A DNA stretch of 64,000 nt from Clostridia bacterium (GCA_017409455.1 JAFQSS010000011.1:29595-93594); one strand, 5' to 3'; positions 14,822 to 61,959 are shown, counted from the first letter of the stretch. Numbers and translations: made by a program. The notes: generated from the sequence alone by a model not told the origin.

Positions 14822-14867
14822 AATTTGGGGACGGTCCTTTTTTTCGCGAATTTTGGGACAGTCCTTT
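14822..14867. repeat. 46-bp dyad-symmetric GC-rich element (GGACGGTCC - T-tract - TTCGCGAA - GGACAGTCC); second copy at 61914..61959
   Basis: aatttggggacggtcctttttttcgcgaattttgggacagtccttt; 4 mismatches to the reverse complement of 61914..61959. Confidence 0.8.
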
Positions 14868-29323: not shown

Positions 29324-31123
29324 CTATATTATAACCTTAATTCCTTTTTTTGGCAAGTATTTACTTAAAACTTTTACCTCGTTTACCACGGGGACGGAGA
29401 TAATGGTAAATTTTAGCGGAAGCCTCCGGCCACCTCCGCCTCCTCCAAAGGAACCACCTCCGCCTCCTCCAGAAGAGAATCCTCCTCCTCCAGCCGAATA
29501 GCTTTCAGCTCTTGATTTAGCGATTTTTGCAGCACTTATACCTTTATGAGAACTCATATGTACAAACATTATATAATCATAAGATGTAAAGTTTGATTGT
29601 TCGATTATTTCTGGATATATATCTTTAAATTGTTTTGCAACTTTTTTAGCAATTCCCATAATTTGTGCAAAAATCAAATATTCTTCAAATAACTGAACTT
29701 CAACCGCTTCTCTTTCTTTTATAAGTGTATATTCATTTAAATACCTTTTCAATCCTGCTAGTTCAAGTGCTTCTTGTTTTAGTTCGGGTGTTGCAACATA
29801 TACTTTACTTTTAAATATTTTAAGGTTAACTTTTTCTTTAACTTCTATCAAACCTTGTTCTATTAATTTATTTTGTTCGGCAGATATAATTGTATCAAAC
29901 CAAGAAAGAACTTTTGAATAACTATGTTCACACCATTTTTCAAATTCTTTACTTTCCAAATATCCATCTTTACTTGCTGTATATAGCATTTTAAACAATT
30001 CTTTTTCTTTAGGCTCTAAAAATATTTCAGGATTTGTTTCTTTTAAAACAATAACTGTATTTTCTTTTTTGAATATTAATCCAGTTTCTTTTTGTTCTAT
30101 TCTAATTACACCATCTTTAAGCCACTTCAAAATTATAGCCCCTAAAATGTCCGTCTTTTTTTCTATTACGTTATATTTATATCCTATATAATATGCTCTA
30201 AATATATCTTTTTGACATGGTATATCTCTAAAGTATGGAACATCTTTTGGAATCTTCTTTCCTACAGTTCCATATTCAAATTTAGTTTCAACACTTGCTA
30301 TTCCTGCAGATATTCCTATAATAGCAAAAAACATTATCATTCCAAATGTAGTAACAATAGCTATCACATCTACATCATCTAATGAAGATTGTGTATATGT
30401 TTCTGAACCTTCTTCAGCCATATCATAATAATATTCAAAATTATCATTTAATTTATTAGTTGTATCAAAAGTCCCAAGAGGAAATTTTACTAAAATAGTC
30501 ATATATTCATCAGTTGCTAATCTTCCATCTGACTGCATTTCAATATATCCATCATACACATATGCTGTTCCACCATAATTTCCATATCCCCAAACATCAA
30601 TTGTATCTTGGATTTTAAAATTAGTATAAATTTTAATATACATATTCCCTATTGATGTTGAAAAATCATATGGAATTAAAGTCCAATATATAATTTGTGA
30701 ATCTGTTGTTTCAGACACAAAATTAGTAATCGTATATTTTGCAGTATAAGTATGTGAGCCATATTTACTTATTCCCCAACAAAGTTCAACTCCATTAGAA
30801 ATTTTGTTTATTCCACATTTATTTGATTTACTTGCTAATGTTCCAGATGTATTCCAACTTGATAATGTTGTATACTGTGTATTTCCATCTTTAACAGTCA
30901 AATCTTTTATTTCGGAATTTCCCAAATTATAATATGGATGATAAACCTCTGTTCCTTGTGTTACATTGCATTTCCAAGTTTCTGTAACATATGCATCACC
31001 ATTGTCATCAACAAATATATCCATAGATATACTTTGTATTGAATTTGCTTCTACTATATTTCCAATTGAAAACACAATAAATGCAAATATATAAATACCT
31101 AATATTTTTAATGTTTTTCTCAT
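29324..31123 (-). CDS. DUF2207-type membrane protein with C-terminal Gly-rich tail
   Basis: Signal peptide, large extracytoplasmic domain, TM helices, C-terminal GGGGFSSGGGGGGSFGGGGGG; the last ~30 aa are read from the inverted-repeat element and the hpf promoter region. Confidence 0.7.
   Translation of the reverse strand: MRKTLKILGIYIFAFIVFSIGNIVEANSIQSISMDIFVDDNGDAYVTETWKCNVTQGTEVYHPYYNLGNSEIKDLTVKDGNTQYTTLSSWNTSGTLASKSNKCGINKISNGVELCWGISKYGSHTYTAKYTITNFVSETTDSQIIYWTLIPYDFSTSIGNMYIKIYTNFKIQDTIDVWGYGNYGGTAYVYDGYIEMQSDGRLATDEYMTILVKFPLGTFDTTNKLNDNFEYYYDMAEEGSETYTQSSLDDVDVIAIVTTFGMIMFFAIIGISAGIASVETKFEYGTVGKKIPKDVPYFRDIPCQKDIFRAYYIGYKYNVIEKKTDILGAIILKWLKDGVIRIEQKETGLIFKKENTVIVLKETNPEIFLEPKEKELFKMLYTASKDGYLESKEFEKWCEHSYSKVLSWFDTIISAEQNKLIEQGLIEVKEKVNLKIFKSKVYVATPELKQEALELAGLKRYLNEYTLIKEREAVEVQLFEEYLIFAQIMGIAKKVAKQFKDIYPEIIEQSNFTSYDYIMFVHMSSHKGISAAKIAKSRAESYSAGGGGFSSGGGGGGSFGGGGGGRRLPLKFTIISVPVVNEVKVLSKYLPKKGIKVII
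29328..29356 (-). promoter_or_regulatory. Putative sigma-A promoter of hpf (TTGCCA-17-TATAAT)
   Basis: Hexamers at 29351-29356 and 29328-29333 on the minus strand; lies inside the 3' tail of the DUF2207 ORF. Confidence 0.5.
29382..29413. repeat. 32-bp inverted repeat, left copy
   Basis: tttaccacggggacggagataatggtaaattt is the exact reverse complement of 31187..31218. Confidence 0.95.
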
Positions 31124-31186
31124 ACTTATCCCCCTTTTTTCAAAATAATTATCTCACAACACAAAAAATTTAGCAATACTCACAAA

Positions 31187-31218
31187 AAATTTACCATTAT
31201 CTCCGTCCCCGTGGTAAA
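31187..31218. repeat. 32-bp inverted repeat, right copy
   Basis: aaatttaccattatctccgtccccgtggtaaa; 10-bp self-complementary arms around a 15-nt asymmetric core. Confidence 0.95.
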
Positions 31219-31274: not shown

Positions 31275-33641
31275 ATGAACAATAATTTAATGAAATTAGA
31301 ATTTAATAAAATATTAGATGCAATATCAAATTATTGCAAAACATATATAGGTAAAAAATATGTTTCTGAGCTTCGCCCTTCACAAGTTCGTGAAGAAGTT
31401 CAAAAAATGCTTAATGAAACAAGTCAAGGAGTAATTCTTATTCAAAGAAACAGTACCCCACCACTTGGTTCAATAGCAGATATAACTGTATATATAAAAA
31501 CATTAGATGGATGTGGCACACTTAGTATTAAAGCATTATTAGAATTACAAAACATTTTACAAATGTCTGCAAATTTAAAAGATTATTTTGCAAAAGACCA
31601 TCTTGCAACGTCAGATTTTTCAGCAATAGAACAATATTTTAATGATTTATATGTAAATCCTAGTATTGTTTCTACTTTTGCTAAATCGATTATCGATGAA
31701 GAAACAATTGCAGATTCCGCTTCATCTAAATTACAAGATATTCGTAGACGTCAAAGAAAAATTGAACAAGATATCCGTTCAAAACTTAACACAATTCTAC
31801 ATTCTTCAACTTATTCAAAATATATGAGAGAAAATCTTGTTACAATTAGAAATGGTCGTTTTGTAATTCCTGTAAAAGAAGAATATCGCGGTGCAGTAAA
31901 AGGTTTTATACATGATATGTCAAGTAGTGGTTCAACAGTATTTATAGAGCCAATTTCAGTATTTGACTTAAATAATGAATTATCTAATTTGCACATTGAA
32001 GAAAGTCTTGAAATAGAAAGAATTTTACAAAACTTAAGTGGATTATTATACCCATACACAAAAGAACTTCAAAATAATGTTGAAATTATTGGAAAACTTG
32101 ACTTTATTTTTGCCAAAGCACATTATTCATTACAATTGCATTGTACAACTCCTGTTTTAAATGATGACAAAATAATCAATTTAAAAAATGCTCGTCATCC
32201 TTTAATCTCACCTGAACATGTTGTTCCAAGTACAATTGAATTAGGAAAAGATTTTTCAACTTTAATAATTACAGGACCAAATACAGGTGGTAAAACTGTC
32301 ACATTAAAAACAATTGGTTTATTAACTGTTATGGCATGTAGTGGATTAAATATTCCTGCAGATGAACCTTCTAGCATATATGTATTTGACAATGTTTTCG
32401 CAGATATTGGGGATGAACAAAGTATTAGTGAATCTTTAAGTACATTTTCATCACATATGAGTAACATTGTTGGAATCACTCGTAGTGCATCTACTGATAG
32501 CCTTATTCTTGTAGATGAATTAGGTTCTGGAACAGATCCACTTGAAGGAGCACATCTTGCAATAAGTATTTTACAACATTTCACTGAGCTTGGAACAATT
32601 ACTGTTGCAACATCACATTATCAAGAATTAAAAAAATACGCATTGGTTACTCCTGGATTCAAAAATGCAAGTGTTGAATTTGACATAGAAAACTTAAGAC
32701 CAACTTATCGTTTATTAGTTGGAATTCCTGGAAAAAGTAATGCTTTTGCTATAAGTAGAAAATTAGGTCTAGCTGAAACAATTATTGAACGTGCATCTTC
32801 TATGATAGATAAAGAGACTGTAAATTTAGAAGATTTATTAAAAAGTATTTATGACAAAAAATCACAAATTGAAGATGAAAAAGCTCGTACAGCTATTGTA
32901 TTGCAAGAAGCTGAAGAATTAAAGAAAAATTTAAAACATCAAAATACAGATGTATTAAACAAAGAAAAAGAATTAATAGCTAATGCTAAACAAGAAGCTA
33001 AACAAATTTTACTTGATGCTAAAGAAACTGCAAATTCTTTAATAAAAGATATTGGAAATAGCACTTCCGCTTCTCAGGCAAATAAACTTAGAAATAAATT
33101 AAATGAGGAAATTTCTTCTATCAACAAAACAAACATAGAAGATGTTGAAATAGCTCATCCTATTTCAAGAGAAGATATAAAAGTTGGATTAGATGTTTTT
33201 GTTGCTAATTTGAAATCTGAAGGTAAAGTAATATCTAATATTTCAAAAGATGATACTGTTCAAGTTCAAATAGGTGTTATGAAATTAAAAGTTGATATAA
33301 AACAATTACAAGAAATTACTAAATCAAATAAACCTTCTGATGATAAAATAACTAATTATAACTATTCAGGTCGTTCATCATTAAAATCACAACATGTTAG
33401 TCCTGAAATCAATTTAATTGGTTTAACTGTTGATGAGGCAATTCCTATTATAGATAAATATTTAGATGATTGCTATATGGCAAAACTTTCATCTGCCCGC
33501 ATTGTTCACGGCAAAGGTACTGGTGCTTTACGAAATGGTATCCATCGTTATTTAAAAACAAATAAGCTTGTTGATACTTTTAGATTAGGCACTTTTGGCG
33601 AAGGTGAAATGGGTGTTACTATTGTTAGTTTAAAATTTTAG
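31275..33641 (+). CDS. mutS2: Endonuclease MutS2 (MutS-II ATPase + Smr domain)
   Basis: GPNTGGKT Walker A, DELGSGTDP, C-terminal Smr (IVHGKGTGALR). Confidence 0.95.
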   Translation: MNNNLMKLEFNKILDAISNYCKTYIGKKYVSELRPSQVREEVQKMLNETSQGVILIQRNSTPPLGSIADITVYIKTLDGCGTLSIKALLELQNILQMSANLKDYFAKDHLATSDFSAIEQYFNDLYVNPSIVSTFAKSIIDEETIADSASSKLQDIRRRQRKIEQDIRSKLNTILHSSTYSKYMRENLVTIRNGRFVIPVKEEYRGAVKGFIHDMSSSGSTVFIEPISVFDLNNELSNLHIEESLEIERILQNLSGLLYPYTKELQNNVEIIGKLDFIFAKAHYSLQLHCTTPVLNDDKIINLKNARHPLISPEHVVPSTIELGKDFSTLIITGPNTGGKTVTLKTIGLLTVMACSGLNIPADEPSSIYVFDNVFADIGDEQSISESLSTFSSHMSNIVGITRSASTDSLILVDELGSGTDPLEGAHLAISILQHFTELGTITVATSHYQELKKYALVTPGFKNASVEFDIENLRPTYRLLVGIPGKSNAFAISRKLGLAETIIERASSMIDKETVNLEDLLKSIYDKKSQIEDEKARTAIVLQEAEELKKNLKHQNTDVLNKEKELIANAKQEAKQILLDAKETANSLIKDIGNSTSASQANKLRNKLNEEISSINKTNIEDVEIAHPISREDIKVGLDVFVANLKSEGKVISNISKDDTVQVQIGVMKLKVDIKQLQEITKSNKPSDDKITNYNYSGRSSLKSQHVSPEINLIGLTVDEAIPIIDKYLDDCYMAKLSSARIVHGKGTGALRNGIHRYLKTNKLVDTFRLGTFGEGEMGVTIVSLKF

Positions 33642-33653
33642 TAACTAGAAATT

Positions 33654-33693
33654 GGGGCCATGTTCGCGGTGCTAGCATCGCGAACATGGCCCC
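33654..33693. repeat. 40-nt GC-rich near-perfect palindrome between the convergent mutS2 and spoVT genes
   Basis: ggggccatgttcgcg-gtgctagcat-cgcgaacatggcccc; 15-bp perfect arms, no adjacent T-run. Confidence 0.8.
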
Positions 33694-33703
33694 AGCTGCT
33701 AGT

Positions 33704-34258
33704 TTATATTTCCATCTGACTTCCTAAGAATGCTGCTGCTGATTGAGCTACTTTTTTCTCTACTTCATTCATTTTTGTATTAGATTCTTTAGATAATAAA
33801 ATTACTGTTCCTATTGTATCTCCATTTGATATTATTGGATATACAACTTGTGCATTATATTTTCTTTGACTATTATCATTTTTTGTTATAGGCATTGAAA
33901 CATCACTGTTCTCTTTACTTGTATAAATTTCTTTATCTTCCATTAATTGTTCTAATTCTTCACTTATATTTTGTTCTAAGTATTCTTTTTTAGAACCTCC
34001 TGATACTGCAATTACTGTGTCTTTATCAGTTATACAAGCAATATGTCCTGTTGTTTTTGATAATGTTTCTGCATATCCTGTTGCAAATTCTGATAGTTCT
34101 CCTATTGGTGAATATTTTTTTAATATTACTTGACCTTCTCTATCTGTAAATATTTCTAGAGGTTCTCCTTCTTTTATTCTTAATGTTTTTCTTATTTCTT
34201 TTGGTATTACAACTCTACCTAAATCATCTATTCTTCTTACAACTCCAGTTGCTTTCAT
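33704..34258 (-). CDS. spoVT: Stage V sporulation protein T (AbrB-type N-terminal domain + GAF-like domain)
   Basis: MKATGVVRRIDDLGRVVIPKEIRKTLRIKEGEPLEIF; 184 aa. Confidence 0.85.
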   Translation of the reverse strand: MKATGVVRRIDDLGRVVIPKEIRKTLRIKEGEPLEIFTDREGQVILKKYSPIGELSEFATGYAETLSKTTGHIACITDKDTVIAVSGGSKKEYLEQNISEELEQLMEDKEIYTSKENSDVSMPITKNDNSQRKYNAQVVYPIISNGDTIGTVILLSKESNTKMNEVEKKVAQSAAAFLGSQMEI

Positions 34259-34338
34259 TAATCTTCCTCCTTTTTGTTTTTCTAAGTATATTCTTATTAT
34301 GACAAAAAAGGAAAAAAATATACATTTAATTTAAAAAA

Positions 34339-34367
34339 CGCAAAAAAGGACCAGGTCCCTTTTTACG
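34339..34367. repeat. GGGACCNGGTCCC-family palindrome (degenerate copy)
   Basis: cgcaaaaaaggaccaggtccctttttacg. Confidence 0.7.
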
Positions 34368-34415
34368 TTTTTTGTTGCAAAATTTTTTTAAATATATTAT
34401 AATATATAAGTATAT

Positions 34416-34766
34416 GGGGATGTAATGGTTTCGACATTACATTTGAAGCATGAATAGCGAGTAGTGGATTCTCGTTAGCCACTATAAAAACGGGAAATTT
34501 AAATATAAACGCTGATAATAGAGAATTAGCATTTGCTGCTTAGTTGCGGCAACGCCTGTTAAAATATCCCCACATATTTTAATTTGGTGTCATTTAGTGG
34601 GAAACAAAGCTGTTTGTTCTACGAAAACAGTGGGTATTTAGTAGATATATTTGATAGTCGTTTGTTTATTAATGATTATTAAATGAATTTTAATAATAAA
34701 CTGCACTCGGAGAAGTTTGTGTGAATTGTGTTATGGACAGGAGTTCGACTCTCCTCATCTCCACCA
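34416..34766 (+). ncRNA. ssrA: tmRNA (SsrA)
   Basis: 5' GGGGATGTAATGGTTTCGAC..; 3' GGAGTTCGACTCTCCTCATCTCCACCA; tag ORF gct gat aat aga gaa tta gca ttt gct gct tag (ADNRELAFAA if translation resumes at GCU); TTGCAA-17-TATAAT upstream. Confidence 0.9.
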
Positions 34767-36284: not shown

Positions 36285-36530
36285 ATGGAAACGGTAAAGT
36301 TAATTGAACCGACTTATGGAAGAATGGTTACCTTGCAGGTACTCAAAGAAGAACCCCTTCTTCATATGATTATCGGCATCTTAACTGCTGTAGCAGACGA
36401 AGAAAAAATTAAATCTAAGGTGTCTGGTAACACAGTCACTCTTACTTTTTCTGACGTTGCCTCTGCAGATGCTTACAAAGCGGCATTTAGGCTTAACCAG
36501 AAAAAAAGTCTTAAAGGAGAAAAGAAATAA
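36285..36530 (+). CDS. Hypothetical 81-aa protein (higher-GC cassette A)
   Basis: TTGAAA-17-TATAAT at 36166-36194; 10-bp 5'UTR hairpin 36241-36264; SD gaggagg; terminator 36827-36856 after ~300 nt of frame-broken sequence. Confidence 0.55.
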   Translation: METVKLIEPTYGRMVTLQVLKEEPLLHMIIGILTAVADEEKIKSKVSGNTVTLTFSDVASADAYKAAFRLNQKKSLKGEKK

Positions 36531-37817: not shown

Positions 37818-38270
37818 ATGAAACGCTTTTTTACATTACTTATGGCATTGTGCCTTTGTGTAATCTCTCCTCTGACCGCTTTCGCCGCTGAGGTTGAAAC
37901 ACTCCCTGCCGCCGAAACACTTTACGTTCAGAACGAAATTACACCCGCATCTGCCAGAGCATTGACCTACAACCAGGTATGGATTGATGCTGGTAAGTAT
38001 TCCAATGGTTCTTTTACTGTTGAGAATCCCCACACTTTTATTTTCACAACTACCAATGGTACTTTGAAGATTGAATCCAACAATCCTAACGCTCAGGTCC
38101 ACATTGTCGTTCATGATGGCATCAATGTCATCCTCAACCGTACTCTTGGTCCTGGCGATGGTGAAGTGTATTTTTCCTCTCAGAGTAACTCTGCTCAATA
38201 CGCTGTGAGTTACTTTGTCTACAGTACCAACAACACCAATGGTATCAGAGTGAATTGTTGGCTGTATTAA
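37818..38270 (+). CDS. Secreted hypothetical protein (higher-GC cassette B)
   Basis: Signal peptide MKRFFTLLMALCLCVISPLTAFA|AE; SD agtgagg; terminator 38330-38358. Confidence 0.6.
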   Translation: MKRFFTLLMALCLCVISPLTAFAAEVETLPAAETLYVQNEITPASARALTYNQVWIDAGKYSNGSFTVENPHTFIFTTTNGTLKIESNNPNAQVHIVVHDGINVILNRTLGPGDGEVYFSSQSNSAQYAVSYFVYSTNNTNGIRVNCWLY

Positions 38271-41217: not shown

Positions 41218-42147
41218 ATGGCCATCAACAACAATGCAATCAACTTCCGCACTAAATTTTCCAAGCACATTCAGACTGATATTGAGCACGAAGTTTTCGT
41301 TTCAGCTTTTGAAAAGTTCATCAATCTGGATGAACAAACCGCAATCGATATTCTTTGGCGGTTAACGTATAACCCCTATTCTGAAGCTTTATGGACAATC
41401 AAACTGGATCCTGAAACCATCCCTTCGGAAATGACTGCAGCCTTAAGAAATGAGCTACGGTATCAGTACTCTCAGTGTCATTCCAATTTTCTGACTGTTG
41501 AAGTACCTGAAGAGTACAAGGAAGCCTATTCCCTCGTCTCTTCTAATACTGATTCCATTACAGCTTATATCGTATATAAGAACTGTAATTCTATTTTGTA
41601 TTTGGATGAAACCAGTGTACAGCGTATCCTGTTCCTTTTAAGTAGCGATAAGGAAAATCACTACTTCGGCGGTCTCCGTTCTCTGGACTTCAATGTCGGA
41701 GAAGCAGAATATCTGAAGCCCTATAAAGCGCAAATTTATACTCTGTTTAATGTGATGTATGAACTGCACAAAAGTGAGGGCAGATATAATTCCAACCATA
41801 CTCCTTTCCAAGAGTTAGGAGCTATGATTCAAGAAACAGGTAACGATCTTCCTTTCACTTTTGGAGATGAAGCAGTAGAGGCTACGGAAACAACCGCTAT
41901 GGAAGAACCTCTGCACGAGGAAATCTCTTTCCAAGCAGAAGAATCGGTTCAGAAGATTGATGTGTTCAATGCAATCACAGCAGAAAAGGTACTTGAACAC
42001 AAGGATGTATTCTTTGCATTCGCGATTACTCGCGATATGTCTTGCTTAGTAGAACTAAGCAAGCTTGGCTTCGACCTAAATCAGGTTGTTGCAAAAGAAA
42101 AGGCAATCAGCGACTTTATTCAAGCTGCTGAAGCCCTGAGTGTGTGA
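41218..42147 (+). CDS. Hypothetical 309-aa protein (higher-GC cassette D)
   Basis: TTGACA-17-TATAAT at 41154-41182; SD ggaggg; terminator gaaagcggtgg..ccaccgctttc 42159-42187. Confidence 0.6.
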   Translation: MAINNNAINFRTKFSKHIQTDIEHEVFVSAFEKFINLDEQTAIDILWRLTYNPYSEALWTIKLDPETIPSEMTAALRNELRYQYSQCHSNFLTVEVPEEYKEAYSLVSSNTDSITAYIVYKNCNSILYLDETSVQRILFLLSSDKENHYFGGLRSLDFNVGEAEYLKPYKAQIYTLFNVMYELHKSEGRYNSNHTPFQELGAMIQETGNDLPFTFGDEAVEATETTAMEEPLHEEISFQAEESVQKIDVFNAITAEKVLEHKDVFFAFAITRDMSCLVELSKLGFDLNQVVAKEKAISDFIQAAEALSV

Positions 42148-42194
42148 GCAAAACCCTCGAAAGCGGTGGAAAAATTCCACCGCTTTCTTCATAA

Positions 42195-42221
42195 GGAAAA
42201 AGGGACCTGGTCCCTTTTTCC
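42195..42221. repeat. GGGACCNGGTCCC-family palindrome
   Basis: ggaaaaagggacctggtccctttttcc, 6 nt downstream of the thrS stop. Confidence 0.8.
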
Positions 42222-42226
42222 CTTTT

Positions 42227-44017
42227 CTATATTGCTTTTGTTTCTATTTCTTCTTGAATTTTATTTGTAAATTCCTCAACTGACATTTGACCAATATCTC
42301 CTGCTTTTCTTGCTCGAACAGCAACAGCATTTGCTTCTGCCTCTTTAGCCCCCATAACTAACATATATGGGACTTTTTCAAGTTGAGCTTTTCTAATTTT
42401 ATATCCAATTTTCTCATTTGAATCATCTACTTCAACTCTGATACCTTTTGCTTTTAATTTTGATTCAACTTCTCTAGCAAATCCAAGTTGATCATCTGTA
42501 ATTGGTAATATTTTTGCTTGAACTGGTGATAGCCAAACTGGAAATGCACCTTTTGTTTCTTCAATTAAGAATGATATAAATCTATCAAATGTTCCAAGAA
42601 TTGCTCTATGTATTACTACTGGTGTATGTTCTTTATTATCTTCACCTATGTACGATAATTCAAATCTACGTGGTAACAAAAAGTCTAATTGACATGTTGA
42701 TATTGTCACATCATGTCCTAATGCTGTTTTTATTTGAACATCTAGTTTTGGTCCATAGAATGCTGCTTCTCCTTCTGCTTCATAGAAGTTTAAATTTAAT
42801 TCTGTTAAAATTTGTCTTAATTGACTTTCTGCGCTTTCCCACATTTCATCATCATCAAAATATTTCTTTTTATCATTAGGATCTCTTAATGATAATCTAA
42901 ATGTATAATCATTAAATCCAAAGTCTTTATATACTGATAATATTAATTCAACAACTTTTCCAACTTCTTGTTTTATTTGTTCTGGAGTTACAAATAAATG
43001 AGCATCATTTTGGCACATTTCTCTTACTCTCTCTAAACCACAAACGTTTCCACTATTTTCATATCTAAAGTCATGTGCTAATTCTCCTATACGAATTGGT
43101 AAATCTCTATATGAACGTGTTTTATTTTTGAATATTAACATATGATGTGGACAGTTCATAGGTCTTAATACCATTTCTTCATTATCTAGTTTCATTGGTG
43201 GGAACATGTCCTCTTTGTAATGATCCCAATGTCCACTTGTTTTATATAATTCAACATTTGCTAATGAAGGGGTATAAACATGACTATATCCTAATGCAAT
43301 TTCTTTATCAGCTATGTATCTTTCTAGCAACATTCTTATTTTTCCACCATTTGGTAAATATAAAGGTAGTCCTGAACCTACTAATTCATGTGTCATAAAT
43401 AATTCAAGTTCTTTTCCTATTTTTCTATGGTCTCTTTGTTTTGCTTCTTCCAATAATCTTAAATGTTCTTCTAATTGGCTTGCTTTTGGGAAAGATACAC
43501 CATAAATTCTTTGCATTGAATCATTTTCTTGGTTTCCTTTCCAATATGCAGCTGATGTTGATAATATTTTTATAGCTTTTACTTTACCTGTTCTGTTTAT
43601 ATGTGGTCCTGCACATAAATCAATAAATTCACCTTGTTTGAAGAATGAAATTTCTTCTCCTTCTGGTAATTCTTCAATCAATTGAACTTTATATGGTTCA
43701 TCTTTTTCTTTCATTAATTTGATTGCTTCTTCTCTTGATAAAGTGCTTCTTTCAAGTGGTAAATCTTCTTTGATTATTTTTTTCATTTCTTCTTCTATTT
43801 TATTTATATCTTCTTCTGTCAATGGTTTTTCCACTCTGAAATCATAATAAAATCCATTTTCAATGGCTGGCCCTATTCCTAATTTTGTATTTGGATACAA
43901 TCTTTTTACTGCTTGTGCTAATATGTGTGATGTTGTATGCCAAAATATTTTGTTTAACTCCTCATTATTTTCTTCTAAATCTAAGATACTTCCGTCTTTT
44001 TGTATTGTTCTTATCAT
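42227..44017 (-). CDS. thrS: Threonine--tRNA ligase
   Basis: Class II motifs and HTTSHILAQAV editing-domain motif; start set at MIRTIQ (SD aaggagg). The upstream 30 codons of the listed ORF belong to the leader. Confidence 0.95.
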   Translation of the reverse strand: MIRTIQKDGSILDLEENNEELNKIFWHTTSHILAQAVKRLYPNTKLGIGPAIENGFYYDFRVEKPLTEEDINKIEEEMKKIIKEDLPLERSTLSREEAIKLMKEKDEPYKVQLIEELPEGEEISFFKQGEFIDLCAGPHINRTGKVKAIKILSTSAAYWKGNQENDSMQRIYGVSFPKASQLEEHLRLLEEAKQRDHRKIGKELELFMTHELVGSGLPLYLPNGGKIRMLLERYIADKEIALGYSHVYTPSLANVELYKTSGHWDHYKEDMFPPMKLDNEEMVLRPMNCPHHMLIFKNKTRSYRDLPIRIGELAHDFRYENSGNVCGLERVREMCQNDAHLFVTPEQIKQEVGKVVELILSVYKDFGFNDYTFRLSLRDPNDKKKYFDDDEMWESAESQLRQILTELNLNFYEAEGEAAFYGPKLDVQIKTALGHDVTISTCQLDFLLPRRFELSYIGEDNKEHTPVVIHRAILGTFDRFISFLIEETKGAFPVWLSPVQAKILPITDDQLGFAREVESKLKAKGIRVEVDDSNEKIGYKIRKAQLEKVPYMLVMGAKEAEANAVAVRARKAGDIGQMSVEEFTNKIQEEIETKAI

Positions 44018-51266: not shown

Positions 51267-51268
51267 AA

Positions 51269-51297
51269 CGTAAAAAGGGACCAGGTCCCTTTTTACG
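51269..51297. repeat. GGGACCNGGTCCC-family palindrome (29 nt, perfect 14-bp arms); partial second copy at 51304..51321
   Basis: cgtaaaaagggaccaggtccctttttacg. Confidence 0.9.
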
Positions 51298-51301
51298 CAA
51301 T

Positions 51302-51958
51302 TTAGGACCTGGTCCCTTTTTCACTTTTTACTTCTTGAATTTTTAAAAGTTTTGCTGTAATATTATCAGGCGTATTTTCCATAACTATTTTAATTACATT
51401 ATTTGTATTATTTTTAAATTTAAAATCATAAGTCCCATATGCAATGGCAGCATCATTACCTGATTGGATATATGGTACATGTCCACTATGTTCATGTCTT
51501 TCAACAACTTCTAATTCCGGCACTTGCAAAACTGCATTATATAAAGTTGTACTTACTTGGCACATTCCACCACCTAATCCCTGTTCTTTTTTTCCATCTA
51601 CATATATATCAGCTTCTTCATATCCTTTAGTATGTGTTGCTTTTCCTACTGTATCACAAAAAGAAAACGTCTCTCCTGGTTGTATTTCTTTTGTTGATAA
51701 TGTTTGACATGTAATTGTTATATTATTTTGCCTTTCTTCATCTTTGTTATAAATATTTGTTGAAAAGCTTGCTATTTCAACTTCTTGTTTAGTGACTGTA
51801 GTTTCATAGTTTATATTAGTATAACTTCTTTCGCTTTGATAATTGGATGTATCATTCTTTGCTTGTGGTATTTCCTCTGTTTTAGTTGAGTTATACCACC
51901 ATATTCCTCCACCTATTAGTCCAATAATTACAGTTAAAACTATTAGCGCTTTTTTCAT
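51302..51958 (-). CDS. VanW family protein
   Basis: GETFSF..G.GGGMCQVSTTLYNA..HSGHVPYI motifs; the last 7 codons are read from the palindromic element. Confidence 0.85.
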   Translation of the reverse strand: MKKALIVLTVIIGLIGGGIWWYNSTKTEEIPQAKNDTSNYQSERSYTNINYETTVTKQEVEIASFSTNIYNKDEERQNNITITCQTLSTKEIQPGETFSFCDTVGKATHTKGYEEADIYVDGKKEQGLGGGMCQVSTTLYNAVLQVPELEVVERHEHSGHVPYIQSGNDAAIAYGTYDFKFKNNTNNVIKIVMENTPDNITAKLLKIQEVKSEKGTRS

Positions 51959-52524: not shown

Positions 52525-52559
52525 AAAAATGGCTTTCAAACGAAGCCACTTTTTTTATG

Positions 52560-52588
52560 CATAAAAAGGGACCCGGTCCCTTTTTACG
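52560..52588. repeat. GGGACCNGGTCCC-family palindrome
   Basis: cataaaaagggacccggtccctttttacg. Confidence 0.85.
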
Positions 52589-52596
52589 TTTTTCTC

Positions 52597-53184
52597 TTAT
52601 AGCCCTTCCCCATCAGCATTTATGAATTTGCTTTTTTCATCATTTGCAACTTGTTTTTCATTTTCCATCACTTTTTGCTCTTGACCTCTAACTTCTGGGC
52701 TTTTAGGTTTATTAGTACTAGAATTATTTCTATTTTTCATTTCATTAATGATTTTTTTAGTCCTATCTTCTTTTTGTTGAAGAGTTTTATTATACATTTG
52801 ATTCATTTTTTGCATTAAATCTGGTATATAATCTAGCAATTTATCCAAACAAGAATCATGGTCAACAGGCATTAATTTAACATTTCCACCTTGTACTACC
52901 AAAAATGCAACCGGATGTATTGAAACTCCTGCTCCTGCTCCTCCACCAAATGGTAATTTATATTCTATTTCTTCATTATTATCTTTTTTATTATATTCTT
53001 TTAATGTTTCCCCATTAAATTCACTTCCACCAGCAGCAAAACCAAAGCATACTTTTGAAATAGGAATTATCGTTATACCATTTGTTGTTTCTATAGGCTC
53101 TCCTATTATAGTATTTACATCTACCATATCTTGAATACTAGTCATTGCAGTCATCATAAGATTTTCTATTGGATGTTCACTCAT
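52597..53184 (-). CDS. ytfJ: Sporulation protein YtfJ/GerW
   Basis: HPIENLMMTAM..DVNTIIGEPIET..IIPISKVCFGFAAGGSEF. Confidence 0.85.
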   Translation of the reverse strand: MSEHPIENLMMTAMTSIQDMVDVNTIIGEPIETTNGITIIPISKVCFGFAAGGSEFNGETLKEYNKKDNNEEIEYKLPFGGGAGAGVSIHPVAFLVVQGGNVKLMPVDHDSCLDKLLDYIPDLMQKMNQMYNKTLQQKEDRTKKIINEMKNRNNSSTNKPKSPEVRGQEQKVMENEKQVANDEKSKFINADGEGL

Positions 53185-55708: not shown

Positions 55709-56158
55709 ATGAATACTAAATTAATTGCAAAAAATCCAGTTGCATACCATAATTACAATATTGAAGATACTTTTGAAGCAGGTATTGTTTTAACTGGTAC
55801 TGAAATAAAATCTATTAGAGCTGGTAAAGTAAATTTAAAAGATAGTTATGCCGGTTTTAAAAATGGTGAATGTTATGCTTATTCTATACATATAAGTCCT
55901 TATGAACATGGAAATATTTTTAACAAGGATCCTTTACGTGATAGAAAATTGCTTTTAAGCAAAAGAGAGATTAATAAACTTTTTGGAAAAGTTAAACAAG
56001 ATGGATATAGTCTAGTTCCTATTAGTTTATATTTTAAAGGTAGTTTTGTTAAACTTGAACTTGGACTTGGTAAAGGTAAAAAGTTGTATGATAAGCGTCA
56101 AGATATTGCCAAAAAAGATGCTGAACGCAGGATGCAAAAAGCTTTGAAAGCTCACTAA
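55709..56158 (+). CDS. smpB: SsrA-binding protein
   Basis: [23 protein letters not shown]. Confidence 0.95.
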
Positions 56159-56221
56159 ATTTGACTAATTTTACATAATATGATATAATATAATTGATTA
56201 CATTTTTAGGAGGTATTCTCT

Positions 56222-56512
56222 ATGAGTAACTGTCATTATTCCCTGCAAAGGCCCGAAATCGATGAGATGGGACATGAGCTTATGAATGCTCATTACCGGT
56301 TTCTGGAGAATTTCGAAGCCTGCGAACTGCCCACTGGATGTGTCATCCATATCTACGATTTGGTAAGCAAGAAGTTTTCTACAGGCAAGGTCCACTCTTT
56401 TAAGTATAAGGATGTTCTGAATTATCAGATATCTCATTCCGAAAAAGGGTGGGAGGGAATGACGTGTATATCTGCACGTCTTGCGCGTTGCCTTATTAAG
56501 GTAGTAGCGTGA
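56222..56512 (+). CDS. Hypothetical 96-aa Cys/His-rich protein (higher-GC cassette E)
   Basis: TTGACT-17-TATAAT 56161-56189; AGGAGG 8 nt before the ATG. Confidence 0.6.
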   Translation: MSNCHYSLQRPEIDEMGHELMNAHYRFLENFEACELPTGCVIHIYDLVSKKFSTGKVHSFKYKDVLNYQISHSEKGWEGMTCISARLARCLIKVVA

Positions 56513-56519
56513 AACAAAG

Positions 56520-56555
56520 GAGCGTCACACTAGTGTATAGTGTTGACGCTCTTTT
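56520..56555 (+). terminator. Intrinsic terminator of cassette E
   Basis: gagcgtcacacta-gtgta-tagtgttgacgctc-tttt (13 bp with a 1-nt bulge). Confidence 0.75.
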
Positions 56556-56633
56556 CTATATCTTGGTACAAAAATTGACATATTTTACATAATATGATAA
56601 AATGTTACTATCATCTAAAAGGAGGAATTTCCT

Positions 56634-56936
56634 ATGTATAAACATCTGTGTCTCCCGTTTGTCAATGGCCAATCTGATATTGAGAAATTACCAAAATTTC
56701 TTGCGCATATTGGGTTTCGGCCACTGAGCACCGCAACTCCTGACAATTTTCCCGCAGGCGCTCTCGTTGTTTTGTACAATAGCCAAACTTTCACTTTTGA
56801 TACTGTTCTTGTTAACGGTTTGAGCAATGGTATCTTATTTTACTCCCATCAATGTGGCCGTAGCTCCGAGAGTTGGTGCAATACATTTTCTAGAGACAAT
56901 GGCTATGATAATTATCTTTTTAAGGTAATCTCGTAA
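56634..56936 (+). CDS. Hypothetical 100-aa protein (higher-GC cassette F)
   Basis: TTGACA-17-TAAAAT 56575-56603; AGGAGG 8 nt before the ATG. Confidence 0.6.
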   Translation: MYKHLCLPFVNGQSDIEKLPKFLAHIGFRPLSTATPDNFPAGALVVLYNSQTFTFDTVLVNGLSNGILFYSHQCGRSSESWCNTFSRDNGYDNYLFKVIS

Positions 56937-56946
56937 ACAGTAAAAA

Positions 56947-56985
56947 GGGCATCACACTAGTTTATAGTGTTGATGCTCTTTTTTT
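56947..56985. terminator. Terminator of cassette F; also placed to terminate fba (bidirectional)
   Basis: gggcatcacacta-gttta-tagtgttgatgctc-ttttttt, with an A-tract on the other side. Confidence 0.75.
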
Positions 56986-56989
56986 ATTT

Positions 56990-57922
56990 CTATGCTTTAT
57001 TTGATGAACCAAATACATTTTTTATTTTATGTGCAACTGTTTCTTTTACTAAATCTCTAGCTGGTGTTAAATATTTTCTTGGGTCAAAAGCACTTGGATC
57101 TTCTGCAAATACTTTTCTAATTCCTGCTGTCATAGCAAGTCTTAAATCTGTATCTACATTTATTTTAGAAACTCCTGATATACTTGCTTCGTGTAATATT
57201 TCATCCGGAACGCCTTTTGCTCCTGGAATATTTCCTCCAAATTGATTGCATGTATCAACTAATTCTGGTATTACTGTTGATGCACCATGTAATACAATTG
57301 GTGTGTTTGGAATTCTCTCTTTAATTTCTTTTAAAATATCAAATCTTAATTTAGCTTCCCCTTTAAATTTGTAAGCTCCATGGCTTGTTCCAATAGCTAT
57401 TGCTAATGAATCAACACCTGTTCTTCTAACAAATTCTTCAGCTTGCGCTGGATCTGTATATTTAGCTTCATCTGCTGCCACATTAACATCATCTTCTATT
57501 CCAGCTAATTTTCCCAATTCTGCTTCAACTACTACACCATGAGCATGCGCATAATCTACTACTTCTTTTGTTAATCTGATATTTTCTTCAAAATCATATT
57601 TTGAACCATCAAACATTACTGATGTAAATCCTGCATCCACACATTTTTTACAAGTTTCAAAATCTGGGCCATGGTCTAAATGTATGGCAATTGGAACATT
57701 TGGATGTTCCTCTACTGCTGCTTCTATCATTTTCATTAAATAATTAATTCTTGCATATTTTATTGCACTTGATGATGCTTGTAATATTACAGGAGAATTA
57801 TTTTCTGCAGCTGCATCTACTATTCCTTGGATTAATTCCATATTATTTACATTAAATGCACCTATTGCAAAACCTTCTCTCATTGATTTTTCAAACATTT
57901 CTTTTGTCGTTACTAATGACAT
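56990..57922 (-). CDS. fba: Class II fructose-1,6-bisphosphate aldolase
   Basis: AIGAFNVNN..PVILQ..HLDHG..LHGAS. Confidence 0.95.
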   Translation of the reverse strand: MSLVTTKEMFEKSMREGFAIGAFNVNNMELIQGIVDAAAENNSPVILQASSSAIKYARINYLMKMIEAAVEEHPNVPIAIHLDHGPDFETCKKCVDAGFTSVMFDGSKYDFEENIRLTKEVVDYAHAHGVVVEAELGKLAGIEDDVNVAADEAKYTDPAQAEEFVRRTGVDSLAIAIGTSHGAYKFKGEAKLRFDILKEIKERIPNTPIVLHGASTVIPELVDTCNQFGGNIPGAKGVPDEILHEASISGVSKINVDTDLRLAMTAGIRKVFAEDPSAFDPRKYLTPARDLVKETVAHKIKNVFGSSNKA

Positions 57923-60265: not shown

Positions 60266-61321
60266 TTATCCAACTTCTTTTCTTATTTTTTCAATTTCTT
60301 CTTTATTGGCTCCTGTCGCTTGTTTTATAAAGTCATCCTCTAAGTTCATTTTTATCATTCTTTCTATTGTTTGTTTTATTGCTTGTGCTAATCCCTCTGC
60401 TAATCCCTCTGCTCTCCCTTCGCTTCTCGCAATTCTTTTATTTCTTCTAAATTCTGCACCTATTCTTTCTTGTATTGTACTCATTTCTTCTTCACACTCA
60501 CTTTCTTCAAATATTTTAATAATTTCTTTTTTAATTTCTTCTTCAATTTCTTCATATAGATATAAAATAATTCTTTTCAATTTTTCGATATCTTTACTTT
60601 TACTATTTTTTATTATTATTTTTAAATTCTCGAGAACTTCTTCATTATTTTTACATTTTTCTAATATAATAACATTTCCAAGTAAAGCTTTACATTGTAA
60701 TAATGCTTCTATTTCATACTTGTTTACATCAATTAGTTTATAACTTAAGTCTATTATTTCATCTTCATATCCTTCTTTATGGATTTGGCTCATTGCAAAT
60801 GAATTACTAGCTTTCCATTTTATCTCTCCTGTATATAAAACTATAGGAACTACTTTGGGATATCGATACGTTGAATTATTTATTTGTTGTTCTTCTACTA
60901 CTCTTCTTATTATTTCAACACAATAATTTAAAATTCTATATGGCATTGAATAATCTACTTTTGTTTGATGTTCTACTAGAAAATATATTTCTTGTCCTTT
61001 TATTTTATATACAATGTCTGCTTGTTTATATTTAAAGTCTTTTGTTATGTAGTTTTCAGTATAATTTTCTAATTCATCTACATTGACTTTATGTTTCGTA
61101 AAATTGTTTATAAACTGAGCCATTTCTTTTGGATTTTGTAAAATTTCTTTGAAGATTTTATCATGCTTTTTATCTCCTGTTTTTTTCTTACTTTCTTCTG
61201 TTGTGTATGCTACACTTTCTTCTTTAGCGCATAAAGTATCTTTTGAGTCATAACAATATAAACTATCGCAATAGTTTAAGTAATCCTCATATGTAAATTC
61301 ATATTTTTCGATAAGCAACAC
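60266..61321 (-). CDS. Rpn/YhgA-like recombination-promoting nuclease (PDDEXK, transposase_31-like)
   Basis: HDKIFKEIL..ADIVYK..YFLVEHQ..MPYRILNY..PIVLYTG pattern; start codon uncertain (TTG/GTG). Confidence 0.75.
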   Translation of the reverse strand: MLLIEKYEFTYEDYLNYCDSLYCYDSKDTLCAKEESVAYTTEESKKKTGDKKHDKIFKEILQNPKEMAQFINNFTKHKVNVDELENYTENYITKDFKYKQADIVYKIKGQEIYFLVEHQTKVDYSMPYRILNYCVEIIRRVVEEQQINNSTYRYPKVVPIVLYTGEIKWKASNSFAMSQIHKEGYEDEIIDLSYKLIDVNKYEIEALLQCKALLGNVIILEKCKNNEEVLENLKIIIKNSKSKDIEKLKRIILYLYEEIEEEIKKEIIKIFEESECEEEMSTIQERIGAEFRRNKRIARSEGRAEGLAEGLAQAIKQTIERMIKMNLEDDFIKQATGANKEEIEKIRKEVG

Positions 61322-61913: not shown

Positions 61914-61959
61914 AAAGGACTGTCCCGAGTTTCGCGAAGAAAAGGACCGTCCCCAAATT
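61914..61959. repeat. Second copy of the 46-bp dyad-symmetric GC-rich element
   Basis: aaaggactgtcccgagtttcgcgaagaaaaggaccgtccccaaatt; abuts the uvrA stop codon. Confidence 0.8.

Follow-up and report, generated by a model that had tools for sequence, protein, structure and literature searches.

How can two neighbouring bacterial genes carry nearly the same promoter and terminator around coding sequences that look unrelated? The question is raised by the interval between smpB and fba of an uncultured gut Clostridia bacterium, in a 64,000-nt stretch (GCA_017409455.1, JAFQSS010000011.1:29595-93594) that was analysed as a whole and is called the window here. The interval holds two head-to-tail units, at 56161-56556 and 56575-56985, with one open reading frame (ORF) each, E in the first and F in the second. 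The original prediction had described them as a homologous noncoding scaffold around unrelated ORFs, resembling a cassette-exchange or diversification locus. Our analysis indicates that the interval is probably a polymorphic locus with two slots for tandem paralogues, and that ordinary homologous recombination would exchange its interiors.

Two remote paralogues share one regulatory frame

The first unit (slot 1, plus strand) opens with a promoter at 56161-56189 (-35 TTGACT at 56161-56166, a 17-nt spacer, TG at 56181-56182 and -10 TATAAT at 56184-56189), followed by a 5' untranslated region (UTR; 56190-56221) that is specific to the allele class and carries the Shine-Dalgarno (SD) sequence AGGAGG at 56208-56213. 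ORF E (56222-56512) encodes 96 aa ending in LIKVVA*, and its terminator (56520-56556) contains a hairpin at 56520-56551 with a 13-bp stem, a one-base bulge on the 3' side, the loop GTGTA and a T tract. The second unit (slot 2, same strand) repeats this layout, with a promoter at 56575-56603 (TTGACA, 17 nt, TG at -15/-14, TAAAAT), a 5' UTR at 56604-56633 with AGGAGG at 56620-56625, conserved in every F allele class, and ORF F (class Fa, 56634-56936; 100 aa, ending in LFKVIS*). Terminator F (56947-56985, not assigned to one strand) has its hairpin at 56947-56978, in which pair 5 is A-U instead of G-C and pair 2 is G.U, and U tracts lie on both strands.

The shared elements of the original prediction were read again directly in both units, and they are as described. 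The promoters are identical at 26 of 29 positions, with 17-nt spacers and TG at -15/-14 in both; AGGAGG is followed by exactly 8 nt and ATG (56208-56221 and 56620-56633); the last codons are similar, and both hairpins have the same 1-nt bulge on the 3' side and differ at one pair, G-C in E and A-T in F. Within the 64 kb, every scaffold element is present in exactly two copies, against an expectation of 0 from 100 shuffles, and no third match was found elsewhere in the window. A simple scan placed both promoters in the top three of the region, each with 11 of 12 hexamer positions matched, a 17-nt spacer and TG. They are predicted to be active sigma-A (sigma-70-type) promoters, near consensus and with an extended -10.

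The ORF bodies were compared at nucleotide and protein level. As the original prediction had noted, their nucleotide alignment is uninformative, but the word unrelated does not hold. The two proteins are colinear in BLASTP (22% over 68 aa, E=0.002), and separately built E-type and F-type profiles align in hhalign over 92 columns with a probability of 96.2% (E=2.3e-9). E, an N-type member, and F are remote tandem paralogues of one protein family over their full length. The family pattern comprises GF(R/K)xL..ATPxDLPxG, a hydrophobic strand ending in YN, F.TVhV, L.Y..Q, a W and a C-terminal YL(F/Y)KVIS, so that the shared last codons of E and F are the conserved C-terminal strand of the family. 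Searches for homologues gave a few relatives of each protein, and the contigs of these relatives encode further members, among them fused two-domain (DD) proteins of the same domain, 197-206 aa long.

Both ORFs are real protein genes under purifying selection. The ratio of nonsynonymous to synonymous divergence (dN/dS) is 0.13-0.28 among E orthologues (L005, L006, L013) and 0.14-0.55 for F and the two-domain genes, and the ORF, SD and start codon of E are conserved in four lineages. E is uncalled in every public assembly of this contig and its orthologues on other contigs are called; the omission is probably explained by its atypical codon usage. This omission would also fit the idea that the GC-rich bodies are structured noncoding or dual-function RNAs, given that GC-rich islands in AT-rich genomes often are structured RNAs and that the folding of the E transcript is somewhat more stable than that of shuffled sequences (z -2.7). 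We find this idea scarcely credible in view of the F transcript, which shows no such excess (z -0.8), the lack of any Rfam match, the conservation of ORFs, SD and starts in all loci with dN/dS of 0.13-0.55, the existence of fused two-domain ORFs and the confident AF2 models. A function of the ORF bodies as RNA was rejected.

Other properties of the expression signals were inspected as well. At 56208-56221 and 56620-56633 the SD is followed by a short complementary pyrimidine run able to pair with it, and in L025 (650-705) the complementary run precedes the SD (CCTCCA-7 nt-TGGAGG). The GGAGG...(T)CCT arrangement is retained in most slot-2 alleles and could form a small hairpin masking the SD. 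A regulator operator in the promoter spacer was unsupported, as TTTTACATAATATG is exact only at the two promoters and the window has no other convincing sites. Sporulation sigma-factor consensus sequences, compared with the spacer by eye, gave matches that differ between loci, and the idea was dropped.

Deep allele classes are reassorted between conserved flanks

We compared the interval with about ten mostly short metagenomic contigs carrying smpB and/or fba, from roughly equidistant lineages. The terminator pattern was found in 1 of 185,579 GTDB species genomes, a metagenome-assembled genome (MAG) named 'Clostridia bacterium', and there at this locus only; with the scaffold DNA pattern, JGI metagenome contigs returned chance matches only and IMG/VR none. 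The related metagenomic loci do carry the scaffold with other inserts, as the search proposed with the original prediction was meant to find. The window has E in slot 1 and Fa in slot 2, and L013 and L006 combine E with a second class, Fb. In L005 slot 1 holds E and slot 2 is empty; slot 2 is also empty in L026, where slot 1 contains a very diverged E-like gene (P0033; Ex). In the remaining loci slot 1 is occupied by a two-domain gene, followed by Fa in L007, Fb in L012, Fc in L015 and Fd in L014. All four combinations of E or DD with Fa or Fb are therefore present, in hosts that are equidistant at fba. The reassortment of slot contents is directly observed.

The flanking genes provide the measure for the age of these classes. 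Across loci, smpB and fba are 89-95% identical with synonymous divergence (dS) of 0.28-0.45, nonsynonymous divergence (dN) of at most 0.02 and a star-like pattern; more specifically, smpB of the window is 92-94% identical at nucleotide level to that of L012, L013 and L026 (dS 0.34-0.45), and fba is 90-94% identical between loci (dS 0.28-0.39). Between the window and L013, dS is 0.353 for E, 0.354 for smpB and 0.323 for fba, and 1.17 for F. E orthologues have a dS about equal to that of the flanks and a dN 10-30 times theirs. The F classes are separated by dS values of 0.8 to more than 2.6, that is, saturated, with 39-57% amino acid identity, and the slot-1 classes are mutually unalignable. As the dS of the F classes far exceeds that of the flanks, the allele classes are older than the host lineages. 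We propose that balancing or diversifying selection may keep them.

These observations largely support the reading as a cassette-exchange locus. Other inserts do occur in the same frame, in all combinations and in classes older than their hosts, but every insert found belongs to one family, and with no integrase or reverse transcriptase within +/-6 kb and no attC-like core seen by eye, there is no sign of a dedicated machinery.

Homology breaks around the interiors, and a hybrid terminator points to recombination

We located where homology between the loci begins and ends. In slot 1, all classes are homologous through smpB and the promoter as far as the -10; homology is lost about the transcription start and comes back at the terminator. 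The slot-1 promoter is 87-100% conserved in all related loci, whichever ORF follows. In slot 2, classes Fa to Fd share promoter, 5' UTR, SD and terminator and do not share the ORF. Orthologous frame elements, 83-100% identical, are compared with 90-98% for other intergenic regions of these genomes. Because frame identity is no higher than that of other intergenic DNA, the frame evolves at the pace of the host, and the interiors do not. The unusual feature is the similarity of the frames between the slots despite a protein identity of about 20%.

The terminators carry traces of exchange. In L005, the single-cassette locus, the terminator joins an E-type left arm (GCGTCA) to an F-type right arm (TGATGC) and the fba-proximal tail, which is what would remain if a crossover between the direct-repeat terminators had removed cassette F; its G.U 'intermediate' is better read as a junction left by recombination than as a step of mutation. 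In L012 the two-domain gene has the long E-type terminator and spacer, and the two-domain genes of L007, L014 and L015 end in a short hairpin, GGAGAGTC-loop-GACTCTCC. In the mechanism that we propose, each gene would stand in the same frame, made of a sigma-A promoter that is close to consensus and has an extended -10, of a perfect SD and of an intrinsic terminator with a bulged stem. The conserved frame and the flanking genes would serve as homology arms through which ordinary homologous recombination reassorts, replaces and deletes the interiors, and the repeated terminators would recombine with each other.

The hairpins themselves are maintained as paired structures. Hairpin E folds with -23.2 kcal/mol (z -5.9) and hairpin F with -22.0 kcal/mol (z -7.2), and they are followed by UUUU(C)U and UUUUUUU, respectively. 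In 14 hairpin copies with 13 pairs each, all 182 of 182 cells are paired, compared with 23-74% in slid controls, and double changes between G-C and A-U are seen at three pairs (1, 3 and 5). Selection on the hairpin, which the original prediction had deduced from a single compensatory change, is well borne out by this covariation. The same change does not mark E against F, as the G-C and A-T variants of pair 5 are each found in both slots. With a stable stem, a U tract and compensatory changes, both hairpins are predicted to be intrinsic terminators. The bulged base is T in most copies and C in one, and since L014 and L026 lack it, the bulge is common and not obligatory. The stem base GGAG(C/A)GTC...GAC(G/T)CTCC is also present in the short terminator of the two-domain genes, and it recurs at a distant member on L028, again with an unpaired base on the 3' side. 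This degree of conservation appears to exceed what a terminator needs, and our model does not explain it.

An imperfect palindrome with an extrahelical base at the end of each unit, kept even on L028, together with interiors replaced between conserved ends, might suggest a dedicated cassette system, in which the bulged hairpin is an attC-like site and unrelated ORFs are exchanged by a site-specific recombinase. Such a system is highly improbable here. Every insert comes from one protein family, each unit has its own promoter, a U tract follows the hairpin and the covariation is that of an RNA stem, and the bulge is lost in two loci. The Pfam families of the genes within +/-6 kb include no integrase, other recombinase or reverse transcriptase; the only mobile-type gene is a Transposase_31/Rpn-like ORF 3.3 kb away. 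The one complete MAG has the scaffold at no other position, all other GTDB species lack it, and in L005 the junction falls within the repeat, a pattern that fits homologous and not site-specific exchange.

Two known kinds of exchange or diversification were considered separately. Like integron attC cassettes, the units are ORF-sized and each ends in an imperfect palindrome with an unpaired base; unlike them, they have their own promoters, lack an integrase and R''/R' cores, show a U tract and RNA-type covariation, and fill two slots only. An integron cassette was rejected on the consensus promoters, on the absence of an integron integrase within +/-6 kb and on the hairpin arms, GAGCGTCAC.../...GTTGACGCTC, which by eye do not fit RYYYAAC...GTTRRRY cores. 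A diversity-generating retroelement was rejected as well, with no repeat of the ORF bodies in the 64 kb, no reverse transcriptase near the locus and differences that span whole ORFs, including indels.

A simpler explanation of the locus is that E and F arose by ordinary tandem duplication of a lineage-specific gene that evolves fast under weak constraint, that the likeness of their flanks reflects nothing but purifying selection for strong expression signals, and that allele differences arose in place with no exchange. The dN/dS values below 1 with no sign of positive selection would suit it, as would the equal dS of E orthologues and flanks (0.35 and 0.35), the retention of slot-specific promoter signatures across lineages and an orthologous frame conservation that is not above the intergenic level. 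We consider it unlikely, though with a real chance of being right, in view of the saturated dS of the F classes (1-2.6) against about 0.3 for neighbouring genes in the same genome pairs, slot-1 genes that are unalignable between 93% identical flanks, the four combinations of E or DD with Fa or Fb in lineages equidistant at fba, and the L005 hybrid terminator and L012 terminator swap, which point to exchange.

Several points weigh against the two-slot polymorphic locus that we favour. First, dN/dS is below 1 overall, with no sign of positive selection. Second, the -35 signatures stay slot-specific across lineages (TTGACTAA in slot 1 and TTGACAT/TTGACTT in slot 2), and their persistence implies that the promoter similarity between slots owes more to selection for a strong promoter than to frequent conversion. 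Third, with about ten mostly short contigs, very fast divergence of F in situ might have occurred. Fourth, the excess of G+C at third codon positions, described below, is unexplained by this model, and the activities of promoters and terminators are predictions. Finally, neither the neighbouring genes nor the domain and structure searches yielded anything that informs on function.

The genes are GC-rich in an AT-rich genome

The E and F bodies have a G+C content of 0.40-0.44 in a window of 0.277. At third codon positions (GC3), E reaches 0.47 and F 0.38, compared with 0.15 +/- 0.05 for host ORFs, and every family member with available DNA lies at 0.25-0.60 versus 0.07-0.19 for genes of the same contig; host-rare codons make up 15-22% of E and F. 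Together with the further GC-rich orphan genes of the window, these values would be expected of recently acquired foreign DNA, that is, of ORFs from a GC-richer donor that landed beside smpB. This origin is nevertheless quite improbable. The excess is family-wide, in three genomic contexts and hosts, the regulatory frame is conserved and as AT-rich as the host, no mobile-element genes and no phage or plasmid homologues were found, and no GC-richer donor appears among 1.84e9 cluster representatives. Synonymous sites do turn over, with the dS of the cassette genes at least that of the flanks. Inferred synonymous singletons from strong to weak (S->W) and from weak to strong (W->S) bases are balanced in E, 8 vs 8, as at compositional equilibrium, and nearly so in Fa and Fb, although these counts are small. 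One recent transfer fails to explain the GC3 excess. Candidate explanations are selection for rare codons or for an mRNA property, biased gene conversion where the locus recombines, and repeated import from an unsampled pool.

Three further GC-rich (0.40-0.46) orphan ORFs of 81, 150 and 309 aa were noticed at 36285-36530, 37818-38270 and 41218-42147. None has a Pfam match, each apparently has its own sigma-A-like promoter and terminator, and the 150-aa product has a signal peptide. GC-rich monocistronic orphan genes may therefore be general in this genome.

A narrowly distributed family with a predicted small barrel fold

The family of about 100 aa appears to be new and previously undescribed. 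Pfam, NCBIfam, PADLOC and PDB sequences contain no match to it; PHROGs gave noise only (best E=0.006, for one distant member against a 30-residue stretch of an endolysin model), and no description of the locus or family was found in the literature. An HMM search of 1.84 billion cluster representatives returned 23 proteins at E<=1e-3, single- and two-domain. No member was found in protein searches of viral, phage and plasmid records (IMG/VR, INPHARED, PLSDB), and known anti-phage defence or phage families gave 0 matches in PADLOC and nothing in IMG/VR and INPHARED. Its distribution is limited to one small clade of uncultured Clostridia that are AT-rich and form spores. Among distant members, P0023 is flanked by a recX-like gene and scpA in a different AT-rich Clostridia genome and forms a monocistronic GC-rich unit (0.50 vs about 0.24) that has a promoter and a terminator to itself; in the window, a recX-like gene and scpA are about 1.2 kb from the cassettes. 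Another distant member, P0028, is located after a tRNA gene.

Structures were predicted with AF2 for F (pLDDT 84) and a two-domain member (pLDDT 90, pTM 0.86), and the models show an N-terminal helix and then a five-stranded barrel. Foldseek searches with both models against PDB and BFVD gave weak Tudor/SH3/CHAP-like matches (TM 0.2-0.45, E of at least 2e-3). The predicted secondary structure would fit a small Tudor/SH3-like beta-barrel, which at these TM and E-values is a candidate fold. The proteins resemble Tudor and SH3 barrels, tandem Tudor proteins (SGF29, 53BP1) and the CHAP C-terminal barrel in the predicted helix and five-stranded barrel and in having tandem-domain versions, and they differ in the absence of any sequence relationship, of conserved Cys or His and of an aromatic cage. 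Because the family alignments contain no invariant Cys or His, a CHAP-type enzyme is unlikely, and a CHAP or NlpC-P60 peptidase was rejected, lacking conserved catalytic Cys/His and being alike in fold only weakly (TM about 0.4). Signal peptides and membrane segments were not found in the family proteins.

The original prediction had suggested toxin/immunity-type assays. A toxin/immunity pair is unlikely, as the two proteins share a fold, are predicted to be transcribed separately, and slot 2 or the second domain can be absent. A type II toxin-antitoxin system was likewise rejected on the separate promoter and terminator of each gene, the homologous products and the single-gene loci L005 and L026. 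Non-enzymatic barrels, strong promoters, one to three domain copies per locus, fused tandems and deep allelic classes lead us, at low confidence, to favour a role in binding or recognition. The proteins might be non-enzymatic binding/recognition modules, acting as dimers or pseudo-dimers in an antagonistic interaction (with a phage, a competitor or at the spore surface). An unlikely and more speculative extension is that the interval is a hitherto unrecognised type of two-slot 'plug-in' locus, in which the portable frame of promoter and bulged hairpin swaps alleles of a Tudor-like recognition protein under balancing selection, for example a self/non-self or anti-phage determinant. The rare-codon coding and the hairpin, with its base stem GGAGNGTC/GACNCTCC conserved in distant members, would then be functional themselves, for instance through codon-dependent translational control or a protein that binds the hairpin.

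Borders of the locus and other elements of the window

The left border is the conserved smpB (55709-56158, plus strand), taken from the ORF list and assigned to PF01668 on the identical contig. Its stop is 2 nt upstream of the E promoter and no separate terminator lies between them, so terminator E probably also ends smpB transcripts. The conserved right border is fba, for class II fructose-bisphosphate aldolase (56990-57922, minus strand). The original prediction had named the downstream hairpin as the only visible terminator of fba, which is plausible because hairpin F also folds on the minus strand (-17.7 kcal/mol) before a run of UUUUU, 10 nt past the fba stop. Terminator F may well be a bidirectional terminator for F and fba, as predicted from these two folds.

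A Transposase_31 gene (Rpn/YhgA-like PD-(D/E)XK) on the minus strand at about 60266-61321 (L001 9633-10688), beyond recN and 3.3 kb downstream of the cassettes, is the sole mobile-type or recombination-promoting gene near the locus. The gene for tmRNA (ssrA, tag ADNRELAFAA; 34416-34766) is 21 kb from smpB and not adjoining. Dispersed palindromes of the form AAAAAGGGACC(N)GGTCCCTTTTT, with the variant GGGACGGTCC, lie at gene ends at 34338-34387, 42193-42242, 51268-51344 and 52559-52608 (also 14822-14867 and 61914-61959) and have the appearance of a recurrent bidirectional terminator or of a REP-like element. Two inverted repeats of 33 nt, perfect (100% complementary) and separated by 1771 nt, at 29382-29414 and 31186-31218 bracket nearly all of a minus-strand gene for a 599-aa protein with a poly-Gly tail (29324-31123), which may be an invertible segment. 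Directly after a mutS2-like gene (31275-33641), a 31-nt GC-rich perfect-adjacent palindrome is found at 33643-33704.

Relation to known variable loci and significance

The staphylococcal agr groups, the pherotypes of Bacillus comQXP and streptococcal comCDE, and the capsule (K/cps) loci are hypervariable loci whose alleles are maintained by homologous recombination within conserved flanks. The smpB–fba interval resembles them in its conserved borders, in deep, mutually exclusive allele classes older than their hosts, in reassortment and in that homologous recombination is sufficient. It differs in that the unit is a single ORF of about 300 nt for a cytoplasmic orphan protein, in that the arms are the unit's own promoter and terminator, tandemly repeated, and in having two independent paralogue slots with no evident signalling, surface or biosynthetic function. 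Orphan immunity gene arrays and acquired interbacterial defence clusters occur in gut bacteria. Like such arrays, the locus encodes small cytoplasmic proteins that evolve fast and are by prediction strongly expressed, from tandem genes of atypical GC content between which the intergenic sequence is conserved; unlike them, it has no nearby toxin gene or recombinase, consists of a single family at a fixed core position between smpB and fba, and matches no known immunity family.

In conclusion, the locus defines a new, very narrowly distributed protein family, and it offers a compact case from a core genome in which single ORFs, not operons, would be exchanged as alleles, with the promoter and terminator of each gene as homology arms. 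A GC3 of about 0.4-0.6 in genomes with a GC3 of about 0.1, which persists despite synonymous turnover, makes it a clean natural case for setting codon-choice selection against biased gene conversion. If the alleles encode specificities, the locus would give a handle on strain-level conflict or recognition in this uncultured clade of gut Clostridia.

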